DNA of 64,000 nt from Spirochaetota bacterium (lineage in GTDB: Bacteria > Spirochaetota > UBA4802 > UBA5550): the NCBI GenBank assembly GCA_050298055.1, contig JBNKTL010000017.1:26306-90305 (forward strand). The letters run 5' to 3'. The position numbers are program-made. Below, in pieces: positions 54,001-57,000 of the stretch (position 1 is its first letter; the number at the start of each line of letters is the position of its first letter).

Positions 54001-57000
54001 ACATGTTCTATACCCTCCACTCCATACCCACTGTGGGGTTCAGGATGGAGTTCCAGGACCAGTCTTTTGTTTACAGTTCGGACCACAATAACGATCCCAA
54101 ACTCCACAGGAAGCTCCTCAACGAAAAGATCATCAGCAAAGAGAGATACGAGGAACTAAAGAATTTCCCCTGGGATTCCAAGGTTATCTACCATGAATCG
54201 GGAGTACCTCCCCTGCATACACCCATAGATTATCTCAATTCTCTGCCCCATGAAATCCAGGCCCGTACGGTTGTGTACCATATCGCGGCAAAGGACTTTC
54301 CCGAAAAAACGGGCCTTACCCTGGCAACCTTCGGGATTGAAAATACCCTTTACTTTCCCACGGAATCTCCCCGGTTCGAAAAGGCATACCAGATACTGGG
54401 TCTCCTGAAGAACCTCGATTTTTTCGAGGACATTCCGGTGAACAAGGCGCAGGAATTCATTGACATTATCGAAGAGGAGAACTACCGGAAGGGTGACCTC
54501 ATTGTTAAAAAGGGGACCACCGGGGACAAGTTCTACATGATACTCCACGGGAACATCTCCGTGGATACCGGGGGCCTCGAGATGAAGAAGATTTACGGGG
54601 CTTACGATTATTTCGGAGAAGTGGCCCTGATTACCGAGGCCAAGAGGGCCGCGGATATTTACGCCGAGACGGATATGGTTGTGTATACCATCACCCGGGA
54701 CAGGTTCCTGAACTTCATTGTGGGAACGGAATTTGAAAAAACACTGAAGCGCCTTGTAAAGATCAGGAGCAGTGAGACATGGAACCTCCTCTCAATGAGC
54801 AAGTTTTTCCAGCACTGCACATCCTCCCAGAAGACATGGCTGGAATCGATTTTCCAGCCGGTTGAGCTGACAAAGAAGGGGACCCTGATAAAAGAGGGCG
54901 AGCATGTTGAGTTTATCTATATCATACGTAAAGGTGAGGTAGAGGTAAAGAAGGGAAGAAAGAAGATCGCCGCGTTAAAGCGGGGTGATTTTATCGGTTC
55001 AATGCTCAAGATCTACAACAGTGAACCGGCAGAGCATACCTTTTCCCCCACCGGTCCCGTTTCCCTCTATGCCATGCAGAGAAAGGACATCCTGAGGTTT
55101 CTTGACAAGAACCCGGGAATTTTAATGAAATCGGTCTATGATTTTTAGGTATTGCTCCCGCTTGTTACTTCCTTATCACCTCTATAACAGAACATGTGAA
55201 ACGGGAACCGGTTGAAAAGAACTTCGGGTTATATCGTGTCATGAGTTCTCAGTGCCTCATTATATTCAATTTATACTTTTAATGGTGCAATCCCAGGGCA
55301 GGTTTTGCTCTGAAAACCCGGTAAAGAGATTCATGAGAATAAAAAATTATTTACATGCATTTATCTCAATATATATGTGTCCTTTCAAGTTATTTTAATA
55401 TTTATTCTGTACTGATATTTGGTACTATTCCCCTGAAAAGAATAATGATTGGTGTGCGTTGAATGCGTTATAGCCTGGCAATTAATGGTTACGGTCGTAT
55501 CGGACGTTGCGTATTGCGCGCCCTCTACGAGGCCGGTTTGCAAAAAGAAATGCAAATCGTTGCCATCAATGAGCCTGCCGATCTCAATACCATTTGCCAT
55601 CTGACCAGGTACGATTCAACCCATGGCCGTTTCCCCGGCCAGGTCAGTTGCGGAGACGGTCAGGTACTGAATGTTAACGGTGACCGGATAAGCGTTTATC
55701 AGCAGAACGATCACAGCCTGCTTAACTGGCGGGACCAGCATATTGACCTGGTCCTGGAGTGTACCGGGGAAGTGAACACTATCGATGATGCCGGGCTGTT
55801 GCTCAGTGCCGGTTCCCGGCGTGTGTTGTTTTCTTATCCCGGTGAGGCGGACCTGATGGACAGCACCATTGTTTATGGTGTGAATGAGGCCCGGATTTCC
55901 GCGGAGCAGCGTTTTGTTTCCGCGGCTTCCTGTACCACCAACTGTATCGTCCCTGTCATAAAGGTGCTGGATGATGCCTTCGGTATCGAGGCGGGGACGA
56001 TTACCACGATTCACTCCTCCATGAATGACCAGCCGGTTATTGATGCTTATCATCATACCGATCTGCGTAAGACCCGGGCCGCCGGCCAGTCGATTATACC
56101 GGTTGATACCGGTCTGGCCAGAGGAATTGGCCGTGTTTTACCGCATATGGAAGGTGTATTTACCGCCCATGCCCTGCGTGTTGCCACCATTAATGTTTCG
56201 GCCATGGATCTGGTGGTGTTGGTTCGCAGGGATGTGAACAGCTCCCGGGTCAATGCCGTTTTGCAGCAGGCGGCTGAAGGTGGATTGGCAAAAATAATGG
56301 GTTACACAACAGAGCCCCTGGCCAGTTGTGACTTTAACCATGATCCGCGTTCGGTTGTTGTGGATGCCAGTCAAACCTGTGTCAGTAACAGCCGCCTGGT
56401 TAAGGTATTATGCTGGTTTGATAACGAATGGGCTTACGCCAACCGCATGCTGGATATTGCCATGGTAATGAAGCAACTGGATTTCGAAAGTCAATAACGG
56501 AACAAATTTTATAAAGTTGCCGGCTATTAATTTAAGGAATGTAGTGATATTTTCGGATAAACATTACCGGGTTACGACCCTGTTTTTAAGAATAATAATT
56601 CGGCGCTCCACAATATCAATAATATCGATAATAACTATTGATAATATTAATACTTGACATTCTCGTTATTACCCTGACCATGTCCCGGATCGGTTGAGGG
56701 GGCTGGGCCCCCCGCGGGCTGCAAACCCGTCGGAAAGCTTATATGCTTTCGGGTGGTTCGATTCCGCCTCCGATCTCATGGAATAATAATTTTTAACAGT
56801 AACTACTCGGCTCTATGGAGAAATAAACCTGTTTATCAAAATATCAACAGGATGTCCCCGCTCCTTCGGCTGCGGGGACATCCCGGTTATTTTTTTAATA
56901 AATATGATTAGTCTTTAACATGGCTGAGTAGCAACTTATAGTGAAAAAAGAGGTACCTTTATGAATGCGGCAAAATTTGAAGTAAAATCCTATCCGAAGA

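Follow-up and report, generated by a model that had tools for sequence, protein, structure and literature searches.

The tRNA gene and its neighbours

In this work we have analysed a 64,000-nucleotide stretch of contig JBNKTL010000017.1 (the window) from the genome of a Spirochaetota bacterium (GCA_050298055.1), in which a cysteine tRNA gene with a tRNA-Sec-like body lies ahead of the genes for a double-cubane-cluster reductase (DCCP) and its activase (Table 1). ARAGORN called a single tRNA on the window, a tRNA-Cys(gca) at 56688-56777 of the plus strand, and Rfam tRNA-Sec (RF01852) matches 56687-56776 with 61.1 bits and an E value of 6e-10, the gathering score being 47. A preliminary description of this DNA had given the gene 90 nt, ending at 56777. 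Its location and strand stand, but the 3' end does not: in several relatives CCA comes directly after the U, so that 56777 lies outside the tRNA and the mature end is U73, which makes 89 nt up to the discriminator in a gene without an encoded CCA. The minimum-energy fold is a cloverleaf of -44.8 kcal/mol (z = -3.1 against shuffled sequences). The tRNA-Sec-like body, the GCA anticodon and U73, all noted earlier, are borne out by the Rfam score, the ARAGORN call and the alignment of relatives respectively, as is the presence elsewhere in the genome of a normal tRNA-Cys and a normal tRNA-Sec: its 53 tRNAs include a canonical 73-nt tRNA-Cys (C16:51396-51468) and a tRNA-SeC (C5:48989-49078).

Table 1. 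Features of the tRNA-reductase locus (window positions)
Feature	Position	Strand	Basis or details
selC*-type tRNA-Cys	56688..56776	+	ARAGORN; Rfam tRNA-Sec, 61.1 bits; model R1, 89.0 bits; cloverleaf fold
Acceptor stem, 5' strand	56688..56694	+	pairs with 56769-56775: 6 Watson-Crick pairs and U7.U66
D arm	56698..56712	+	6-bp stem, 3-nt loop
Anticodon arm	56714..56730	+	5-bp stem, loop CUGCAAA; anticodon GCA at 56721-56723
Long variable arm	56733..56750	+	6-bp stem, 6-nt loop
T arm	56752..56768	+	5-bp stem, loop UUCGAUU
Discriminator U73	56776..56776	+	invariant in 47/47 aligned members
Terminator-like hairpin and T run	56850..56895	+	12-bp arms 56850-56861 and 56872-56883; read from sequence
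Promoter-like site before the reductase gene	56915..56942	+	TTAACA, 16 nt, TATAGT; consensus match only
Double-cubane-cluster reductase (DCCP), 432 aa	56961..58259	+	NF040772, 494.7 bits (cut-off 350)
Activase / DCCP reductase ATPase, 252 aa	58259..59017	+	TIGR00241, 235.4 bits

The reductase gene begins 183 nt downstream of the tRNA and is followed by the activase gene, in the arrangement first described, and the activase starts at the stop codon of the reductase. All features by which NF040772 reductases are recognized, namely a score over the cut-off, the cluster cysteines and an adjacent activase, are present. The protein keeps eight cysteine columns with its relatives, 12 of its 432 residues being cysteine, and it matches the solved chains of Carboxydothermus hydrogenoformans DCCP/DCCP-R (PDB 6ENO and 7YYL) at E 1e-152. 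A consensus scan recovered the inner part of the terminator-like hairpin downstream of the tRNA and ahead of the reductase gene; with this hairpin of its own behind it, the tRNA is probably transcribed separately from the reductase. The idea of an island with an attachment site at the tRNA was rejected: when up to 3 mismatches were allowed, the 22 nt at the 3' end of the tRNA were found only once in the window, and there was no integrase among the ten ORFs scanned between 50925 and 63744. An 8-nt inverted repeat upstream of the tRNA (56614-56643) says little, since the genome holds 119 AT-rich look-alikes with 2 mismatches, none of them near selD.

Fold and class of the tRNA

The fold was examined in an alignment of 47 family members. 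Changes on both sides were seen in 24 of the 29 base pairs, and 94.2% of cells were paired, against 39-57% when the partners were slid. Both the D stem (helix 2, with 98.6% of cells paired) and the variable-arm stem (helix 4) showed two-sided changes in all 6 pairs, and G1:C72 was found in every one of the 47 sequences. The outer pair of the T stem, 49:65, is formed in 42/47 members by three pair types (CG 24, UA 12, GC 6), and this covariation favours a 7/5 acceptor/T domain. Other layouts fared poorly: the 8:65 pairing of an 8/4 fold is formed in only 18/47 sequences, the -1:73 pairing of an 8/5 fold in only 14/47, and a 9/3 fold was rejected by eye. This subtype has a 7/5 acceptor/T domain whose seventh pair is weak. 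The earlier reading of a 7-bp acceptor with a basal U.U is right about the U.U in this tRNA, but position 7:66 is paired in 21/47 members and unpaired in 26/47. The 6-bp anticodon stem given there could not be upheld, as we find five pairs and an opposed C/C. The paired changes that it noted between the acceptor stems of relatives are seen in our alignment too. With all its helices intact and compensatory changes across 11 genomes, the gene is an intact and conserved selC*-type tRNA-Cys, as had been proposed.

The window tRNA belongs to the Thermodesulfatator/Smithella subtype of the selC*/tRNAReC class, which has been in the literature since 2017. It combines a tRNA-Sec covariance score of 61.1 bits and a long variable arm, whose 6-bp stem covaries, with U73 (56776) and with GCA, one of the two anticodons of the class (GCA or UCA), in a host that has selA, selB, selC and selD. 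Its layout matches that of the tRNA-Sec of the same order, with a 6-bp D stem preceded by 10 nt, a long variable arm, and 12 nt separating the T loop from the discriminator. In these true tRNA-Secs, too, no more than 12 nt follow the T loop, and they score 60-73 bits on our type-A model. In one respect the window tRNA departs from the class description, in which acceptor and anticodon stems are longer than canonical; here the seventh acceptor pair is weak and the anticodon stem has 5 bp. In the accessible text of Mukai et al. (2017, NAR 45:2776, PMC5389517), long stems belong to the general description, "longer acceptor" included, and an 8/4 fold is ascribed to certain deltaproteobacteria only. 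We take the short stems for a trait of the subtype and no bar to membership, because the authors' own table entry for T. atlanticus has, by eye, the same layout as the window tRNA. Two other identities were ruled out. A genuine tRNA-Sec would have G73, UCA and an 8-bp acceptor in place of U73, GCA and the 7/5 domain, and the real selC is the tRNA-SeC gene mentioned above. An allo-tRNA, with a 12-bp acceptor branch (8/4 or 9/3), mostly a non-cognate anticodon and serine identity, is contradicted by the covariation of 49:65 and the scarcity of 8:65.

How does this tRNA compare with the forms already characterized? The tRNAReC of Desulfotomaculum nigrificans reportedly shares the tRNA-Sec-like body, the cysteine marks and GCA, and works with the ordinary CysRS and SelB (accessible parts of PMC11415595 and PMC13582414); its function was tested in E. 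coli. Unlike the window tRNA, the clostridial type, judged from our own type-C loci, has all 8 bp of its acceptor paired and a bulge in its T stem. The deltaproteobacterial selC*-selB*(-cysS*) loci (Mukai et al. 2017) hold tRNAs of the same class, but in an 8/4 fold with a bulged A. In our scan selB* adjoined the tRNA in 22 type-B loci, and in several of these it stood directly behind the tRNA. The window genome, by comparison, has no second SelB or CysRS: one CysRS, one SelA, one SelD and one SelB over the cut-off were found, which agrees with the single copies reported earlier and with the statement that dedicated SelB* and CysRS* partners are missing from this genome.

Distribution and gene neighbourhoods

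With Rfam and our own covariance model (R1) we searched 122 genomes of the order. Intact selC*-type tRNAs were found in 11 of them, that is in the window genome and in 10 of the 121 others, while one further genome (G062) holds a remnant without the D arm; the preliminary count of three relatives was therefore too low. BLAST alone missed 7 of the 10. The 11 copies score 86.7-97.1 bits on R1, well apart from the next best sequences, true tRNA-Secs at 73.3 bits or below. All of them carry GCA, and 7 were recovered without fixing the anticodon. They group into two clades that do not match the division into families, and the patchy pattern accords with the sporadic presence first suggested. The remaining 111 genomes have no such tRNA.

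Beyond the order, our scan found long-arm tRNA-Cys(GCA) genes under record titles of Acidobacteriota, Planctomycetota, Actinomycetota, Armatimonadota and others, and a 2026 paper (PMC13582414), in its accessible part, describes tRNAReC-like tRNAs from Armatimonadota and further groups. The claim that Spirochaetota would be the fifth phylum of the class is thus outdated. It had also been thought that the supplement of Mukai et al. might list spirochaetes; it names none, and the hosts of the published Thermodesulfatator/Smithella tRNAs belong to a different phylum. The 2018 survey of Vargas-Rodriguez et al., which stood outside our comparison, may list more phyla and neighbourhoods. Taken by itself, the tRNA adds one phylum to the range of an oddity already known.

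What is new here is the physical linkage of DCCP to selC*-type tRNAs and selB*. A link between tRNA and reductase had been proposed from two of four genomes, and it turned out to be far wider: a DCCP-family gene adjoins the tRNA in 7 of 12 loci of the order, compared with none of 30 true selC loci, and in 11 of 113 selC*-type loci from other phyla. No DCCP lies nearby in 5 of the 12 order loci and in about 90% of the loci elsewhere, many of the latter having short flanks. The adjacency of selC* to DCCP and activase genes spans four labelled phyla and three tRNA subtypes. In three type-B loci (L050, L019 and L059) the DCCP and/or activase, directly upstream of the tRNA, selC* and selB* stand on one strand with gaps of 4-20 nt around the tRNA, and one-strand clusters of DCCP, activase and tRNA have gaps of 0-50 nt. 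The position of the tRNA relative to the reductase varies, on either side and on either strand. The reverse test started from 80 DCCP loci picked by protein: 7 tRNA-like genes lay nearby and 5 of these were of selC* type, the other 75 loci being without one. Placed on the DCCP tree, adjacency to such a tRNA requires 11 changes.

Single loci add detail. In G027 an HGD-D-family gene ends 60 nt before the start of the tRNA, the same distance as first noted, and in G001 and G076 aromatic-pathway genes lie beside the tRNA instead, again as described before. In G105 selC* stands beside a row of genes for DCCP2, CGGC, a class V aminotransferase and SelD. The remnant of G062 comes together with a broken DCCP gene, whose single stop is a TAG at a glutamate position (Glu89), by which we judge it to be broken; the gene next to the remnant is the activase on the plus strand, and a minus-strand ORF at L011:7155-7910 proved spurious. 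Across the 80 DCCP loci SelD lies within 6 kb in 5 and a TusA-DsrE gene in 11.

According to the accessible text of Haft (bioRxiv 10.1101/2022.07.06.499078), 955 of 970 DCCPs of the NF040772 family come from SelD-holding assemblies, and the window DCCP likewise stands in a SelD-holding genome. That part of the text mentions tRNA once, with regard to TusA, and reports no tRNA neighbour. The text of the Mukai supplement, figures apart, gives no match for activase, benzoyl-CoA or HgdB, and our literature search, to which the 2018 survey did not belong, found no paper joining double-cubane genes to selC*/tRNAReC.

Possible roles of the tRNA and the reductase

We propose, with a probability of about one half, that the gene is a working extra tRNA-Cys whose cysteine is delivered by SelB at UGA codons with a SECIS element, and that it forms one selenium-use module with the reductase. 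The single housekeeping CysRS would charge it with cysteine. The tRNA carries the marks for this (G1:C72, U73 and GCA), of which U73 and GCA are the main ones for CysRS; the selC* of D. tiedjei is cysteinylated in vitro, and CysRS* is needed only for A1:U72 forms (accessible text of PMC5389517). The single SelB would then carry the Cys-tRNA to UGA. For the D. nigrificans form, delivery by SelB and not by EF-Tu, with UGA read as cysteine, is described in the accessible parts of PMC11415595 and PMC13582414. For the window subtype, reading of UGA is favoured indirectly by its UCA-anticodon members and by the spacing that the tRNA shares with the order's tRNA-Sec. When selenium is short, selenoproteins might in this way still be made as cysteine forms, and among them would be the genome's own SelD, whose gene has one in-frame TGA in all 11 tRNA holders. 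The reductase may have a part in supplying SelD with selenium or sulfur, without needing any special decoding itself; this role is suggested by gene neighbourhoods only. Mere co-occurrence with the selenocysteine machinery is uninformative here, because that machinery is present almost throughout the order: tRNA-Sec passes the cut-off in 104/122 genomes and SelB in 100/122, and 96 of the 106 SelD entries listed have the TGA.

More questions are raised by the fold. Since the subtype has an ordinary 7/5 domain, is it SelB or EF-Tu that carries the tRNA? Baron and Bock are said to have found in 1991 that cutting the tRNA-Sec acceptor to 7 bp shifts its binding from SelB to EF-Tu. The domain, which differs from the tested forms with 8-bp acceptors, might steer the tRNA to EF-Tu and to ordinary decoding of UGC/UGU, and the long variable arm could attract SerRS. 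The alternative that fares best is an ordinary elongator with a class-II body, a second UGC/UGU isoacceptor charged by CysRS and carried by EF-Tu, for which the adjacency to the reductase would reflect shared history and not function. The well-formed 49:65 pair (42/47) with its unsupported 8/4 and -1:73 rivals, the GCA anticodon with all canonical CysRS marks and the lack of a dedicated SelB* would suit such a tRNA, as would the reported shift to EF-Tu. However, the genome already has a canonical tRNA-Cys, the selenium-linked neighbours are found far above chance, and a position 7:66 unpaired in more than half of the family is unusual for a client of EF-Tu. The subtype also has members with a UCA anticodon, which are unable to read cysteine codons: one (L191) adjoins the closest reductase clade, and others are listed for Smithella in the supplementary table of PMC5389517. 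We regard an elongator as unlikely on these grounds.

Could the tRNA instead be a substrate or scaffold? The ATP-driven pair of reductase and activase would then make or alter the amino acid bound to it (Cys, Ser or Sec), or use that amino acid as a donor of sulfur or selenium. The tight one-strand clusters of DCCP, activase and tRNA would accord with this, as would the lack of an established natural substrate for DCCP and a tie to SelD left unexplained in the accessible text of 10.1101/2022.07.06.499078. The enzyme family offers no precedent for it, 75 of the 80 DCCP loci do without such a tRNA, and the selB* gene after the tRNA in three clusters points to the ribosome, so we consider this role improbable.

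In the preliminary description the reductase was the candidate client, with Cys, or Sec made through SerRS and SelA, delivered at its UGC/UGU codons. The adjacency is real and recurrent and the D arm and variable arm are tRNA-Sec-like; moreover, U73 allo-tRNAs can be serylated (PMC5389517, accessible text) and an Aeromonas tRNA-Sec(GCA) inserts Sec at a cysteine codon (PMC11415595, likewise in part). The genes themselves speak against a client: the 14 full-length reductase genes next to selC*-type tRNAs contain no in-frame TGA, their eight conserved cysteine codons are a mixture of TGC and TGT, and behind none of these codons is there a conserved hairpin (alifold energies about 0 in 369 windows, a comparison of limited power for genes about 50% identical). 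U73 and G1:C72 are invariant, the tRNA may stand on either side or strand of the reductase, and the protein is not rich in cysteine (12/432). The UCA-anticodon members make delivery at UGC/UGU less likely in any case, and we hold special decoding for the reductase to be very improbable. Just as improbable is a silent or decaying copy carried by lateral transfer: the patchy distribution in two clades would suit it, the G062 remnant and a truncated copy in L247 show that genes of this kind do decay, and the D loop of the window tRNA is one base shorter than the 4 nt of most relatives and of the order's other copies, yet 3-nt loops are common in the family, every helix is intact, compensatory changes run across 11 genomes, and its R1 score of 89.0 bits lies inside the range of the other ten copies.

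SelB-delivered cysteine at UGA, with the reductase in the same selenium-use module, therefore remains the reading that we prefer. In a wider form, which we put forward only tentatively, selC*-type tRNAs, selB*, DCCP and activase would make up one conserved module for selenium limitation. In it the reductase would free or reduce selenium (or sulfur) for use by SelD, and enzymes encoded with UGA, among them SelD itself, would go on being made as cysteine forms thanks to the tRNA. A bolder version would have the reductase act on the aminoacyl-tRNA itself. The recurrent linkage joins two problems, the natural purpose of tRNAReC on the one hand and, on the other, the job of DCCP together with the reason why nearly all of its hosts hold SelD, and both could be tested in one operon. 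If the module is true, it would give double-cubane enzymes their first physiological setting and would explain the published co-occurrence of DCCP with SelD.

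Structure and class of the window tRNA

The preliminary description had proposed a tRNA shaped like tRNA-Sec that carries the anticodon GCA and U73, and this is borne out by the ARAGORN call, by the match to the Rfam tRNA-Sec model (61.1 bits, E 6e-10; gathering score 47) and by the discriminator U73 at 56776. The genome has 53 tRNA genes, including a canonical 73-nt tRNA-Cys on contig C16 and a tRNA-SeC on contig C5. The tRNA strand alone folds into a cloverleaf (-44.8 kcal/mol, z -3.1). Read base by base, the molecule has an acceptor of six Watson-Crick pairs plus U7.U66, a D arm with a 6-bp stem and a 3-nt loop, the anticodon loop CUGCAAA, a 6-bp variable stem and a 5-bp T stem; its anticodon stem has 5 bp, not the 6 bp originally assigned. 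The gene encodes no CCA. An 8-nt inverted repeat, TATCAATA ... TATTGATA, with 14-nt spacing, stands about 45 nt 5' of the tRNA within very AT-rich DNA, and is too frequent genome-wide for interpretation.

Features at and around the selC*-type tRNA gene (window coordinates)
Feature	Position	Strand	Remark
GAPDH / erythrose-4-phosphate-dehydrogenase-like gene	55463-56497		flanks the tRNA; under both curated cut-offs
8-nt inverted repeat	56614-56643		5' of the tRNA
tRNA-Cys(gca)	56688-56777	+	ARAGORN; sole tRNA called in the window
Terminator-like hairpin, then T run	56850-56883 (hairpin)		3' of the tRNA, ahead of the reductase gene
Double-cubane reductase gene	start 56961		3' of the tRNA
Activase gene	start 58259		3' of the reductase gene

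The selC* tRNA-Cys described by Mukai et al. (2017, PMC5389517; available parts of the paper) is tRNA-Sec-like, has U73 and GCA or UCA, and occurs in hosts that have the complete Sec machinery. Among the entries available in its supplement table, selC* of Thermodesulfatator atlanticus has the same layout as our type A, the subtype of the window tRNA (acceptor GRCCGG.../...CCGGYC-U), and that of Smithella is of the type-A kind but has the anticodon UCA; no spirochaete names were found in the supplement. The window tRNA is a further member of this published class. Its genome has one each of CysRS, SelA, SelB and SelD, the last with an in-frame TGA. Three folds were compared on an alignment of 47 type-A sequences. 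With seven acceptor and five T-stem pairs (7/5), 94.2% of cells are paired and 24 of 29 pairs show changes on both sides; the outer T pair 49:65 is formed in 42 of the 47 sequences, with three pair types. The 8/4 partner is formed in 18, a pair of -1 with 73 in 14, and 7:66 in just 21. U73 and G1:C72 are present without exception.

In the normal tRNA-Sec of the order (G000:C5:48989-49078; L175-L180) only 12 nt separate T loop and G73, and the sixth acceptor pair is mismatched (A.C), so this tRNA-Sec is of the rare 12-bp (8/4) type and not the usual bacterial 8/5. A second tRNA-Sec(UCA) that differs from this one is present in three genomes of the order (L161-L163; G081:C184:2813-2906, G094:C13:2573-2666, G055:C368:1389-1481); it is 97-98 nt long and has G73, an encoded CCA and an acceptor whose 8 pairs are all formed, and in G055 it adjoins a SelD without TGA on a 2.7-kb contig. 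It may belong to a foreign or mobile Sec gene set, or reflect bin contamination.

Distribution in the order and beyond

The three relatives reported earlier were found again when the window tRNA was compared by BLAST with the 122 genomes of the order, together with one remnant, but that number is too low, as the Rfam tRNA-Sec model added seven further relatives, every one with GCA, an anticodon which that search does not preset. In all, 11 of the 122 genomes, in four of seven families, hold the tRNA, and one more has the remnant. A covariance model trained on the 47 type-A sequences (R1) gave 11 matches at 86.7-97.1 bits, all of them members of its training set, and next the true tRNA-Sec genes at no more than 73.3 bits, with no new sequence of the order between the two groups. 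In a tRNA tree of only 93 columns, and so of limited resolution, the order copies form two clades that are discordant with the families. In a sample of the phylum outside the order, 0 of 134 genomes matched at E 1e-13 or better, a threshold blind to other subtypes. About 186,000 species genomes were scanned for a GCA anticodon stem-loop separated by a long gap from a T loop; this pattern, by which GCA is present by construction, found at least 119 loci of several tRNA subtypes (the typing is rough). Six of the 119 listed were excluded (five chance matches and a duplicate of the remnant), and the remaining listed matches are labelled Acidobacteriota, Thermodesulfobacteriota, Bacillota, Planctomycetota, Actinomycetota, Armatimonadota, Nitrospirota and others.

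Linkage to double-cubane reductase genes

The suggested link between the tRNA and the double-cubane-cluster reductase (DCCP, NF040772) holds within the order. Counting a DCCP-family gene at most 300 nt from the tRNA or directly behind an activase, we found one at 7 of 12 loci (G000, the window's genome, G027, G038, G040 (partial), G042, G105 and the remnant of G062), versus 0 of 30 control loci, which hold true selC genes of the order and where neither DCCP nor activase was matched within 1.5 kb on each side. DCCP genes above the cut-off occur in 56 of the 122 genomes. At the five other loci the tRNA neighbours are a TusA-DsrE gene and DAHP synthase (G001), FdhA-like and HdrA-like genes (G005), aromatic-pathway genes (G076) or unrelated genes (G043, G063). 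In G062 (L011, G062:C3, 5699-7880) DCCP is broken by TAG at the position of Glu89, and the tRNA remnant has lost its D arm and is called by neither ARAGORN nor Rfam; this single case fits a shared fate, in which the reductase and the adjoining tRNA decayed together.

Other neighbours recur as well. A fused MsrB-MsrA gene lies 3' of the tRNA in four genomes of genus g45 (L182-L185), in two of them with a C92-family peptidase gene in between; G043 has kept the tRNA and the genes of the MsrB-MsrA region and lost the double-cubane gene. Three genomes have, next to the tRNA, genes that belong to aromatic amino-acid synthesis or border on that pathway, by old synteny or chance: the GAPDH-like gene of the window, DAHP synthase in G001 (L009 979-2010), and a DeoC-type aldolase with DHQ synthase II in G076 (L010 6288-8053).

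Outside the order, a DCCP gene lies within 1.4 kb of the tRNA in 11 of the 113 selC*-type loci among the matches listed (5 of the 58 whose flanks both reach 1.5 kb or more), and an activase without DCCP in two more; these counts are lower bounds, since 37 of the 113 have a flank of 300 nt per side. The DCCP-positive loci are labelled Thermodesulfobacteriota, Bacillota and Planctomycetota and include tRNA subtypes A, B and C. A Thermosulfurimonas assembly has tRNA, DCCP and activase in the same order as the window, and L054 and L072 have DCCP-activase-tRNA. In L050 and L019 DCCP, activase, selC* and selB*, a dedicated SelB variant, are all on one strand, with 4-20 nt from tRNA to selB* and, in L050, 4 nt from tRNA to activase; L059 has the same activase-selC*-selB* arrangement as far as its contig reaches. 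In the reverse direction, ARAGORN and R1 found seven tRNA-like genes in the best 80 of 602 metagenome loci encoding reductase relatives (724 kb): four intact selC*-type tRNAs (one with UCA; one, L198, identical in sequence to L054), one truncated, and only two ordinary tRNAs. The truncated gene (L247 1693-1781) lacks its 3' end, has the anticodon UCA and lies 33 nt 5' of a double-cubane gene on a contig that also has SelD and a TusA-DsrE gene. The 93 reductases placed on a tree, 18 of them with a selC*-type tRNA, require 11 state changes, which argues against a single inherited accident as the source of the linkage, though the rows without tRNA include short contigs.

Selenium and the possible role of the tRNA

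Is the reductase then a client, whose cysteine codons need special decoding, as was first proposed? The genes speak against it: no reductase examined has an in-frame TGA, and the eight conserved Cys codons are a mixture of TGT and TGC without a conserved hairpin behind them (14 genes). The stop in the G062 reductase was considered as a recoding site and rejected, as this only internal stop is TAG at a Glu position and marks a broken gene. The gene neighbourhood of the tRNA and DCCP points to selenium rather than to client-gene decoding. Among the matches listed, selB* adjoins the tRNA in 22 type-B loci; a YeeE/YedE-like sulfur/selenium transporter gene (PF04143) is found at 11-37 nt from the clostridial-type tRNA of type-C loci L034, L039, L053 and L061 and within 300 nt of the tRNA in type-A loci L044 and L082; and formate dehydrogenase and HdrA-like genes occur near selC*-type tRNAs. 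In G105 (L187, C31, 6355-11153) an operon-like row, DCCP2-CGGC-class V aminotransferase-SelD, immediately adjoins the tRNA on the opposite strand, and in G007 (C46:22858-28124) DCCP lies about 850 nt 5' of true selC, followed by selB. Within 6 kb, SelD occurs at 5, TusA-DsrE at 11 and a class V aminotransferase at 9 of the best 80 of 602 DCCP loci. According to the available text of a preprint (bioRxiv 10.1101/2022.07.06.499078), 955 of 970 DCCPs are in SelD-holding assemblies, for a reason left open, and tRNA is mentioned there once, about TusA. In the G105 row DCCP2 is a DCCP paralogue, CGGC stands for a CGGC-domain protein, the aminotransferase is NifS / selenocysteine-lyase-like and SelD has a TGA; the first three of these genes recur in that order in G062.

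Clostridial tRNAReC, as described in the accessible parts of two reports (PMC11415595; PMC13582414), receives Cys from CysRS, is carried by SelB, not EF-Tu, and decodes UGA ahead of a SECIS element as Cys. We give about even odds to such a mechanism for the window tRNA. The housekeeping CysRS would charge it with Cys via G1:C72, U73 and GCA, SelB would carry it to UGA/SECIS sites, and under selenium shortage Cys forms of selenoproteins would be made, including the genome's own UGA-containing SelD. UGA is favoured over UGC/UGU by the UCA variants in the same subtype, one of them beside a reductase of the window's clade, by the tRNA's spacing, which copies that of the order's tRNA-Sec, itself with only 12 nt from T loop to G73 and 60-73 bits on the type-A model, and by the published tests, made on another subtype. 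Counted against the tRNAReC mechanism, however, are the 7/5 pairing of type-A tRNAs and the 111 of 122 order genomes that do without the tRNA. Could it instead be a second tRNA-Cys borne by EF-Tu? This is the main rival.

The tRNA class itself has already been published, and the new part is its recurrent linkage to DCCP, in some loci with selB*, of which no published account was found in the literature searched. This linkage joins two open questions and is of more interest than the tRNA itself.
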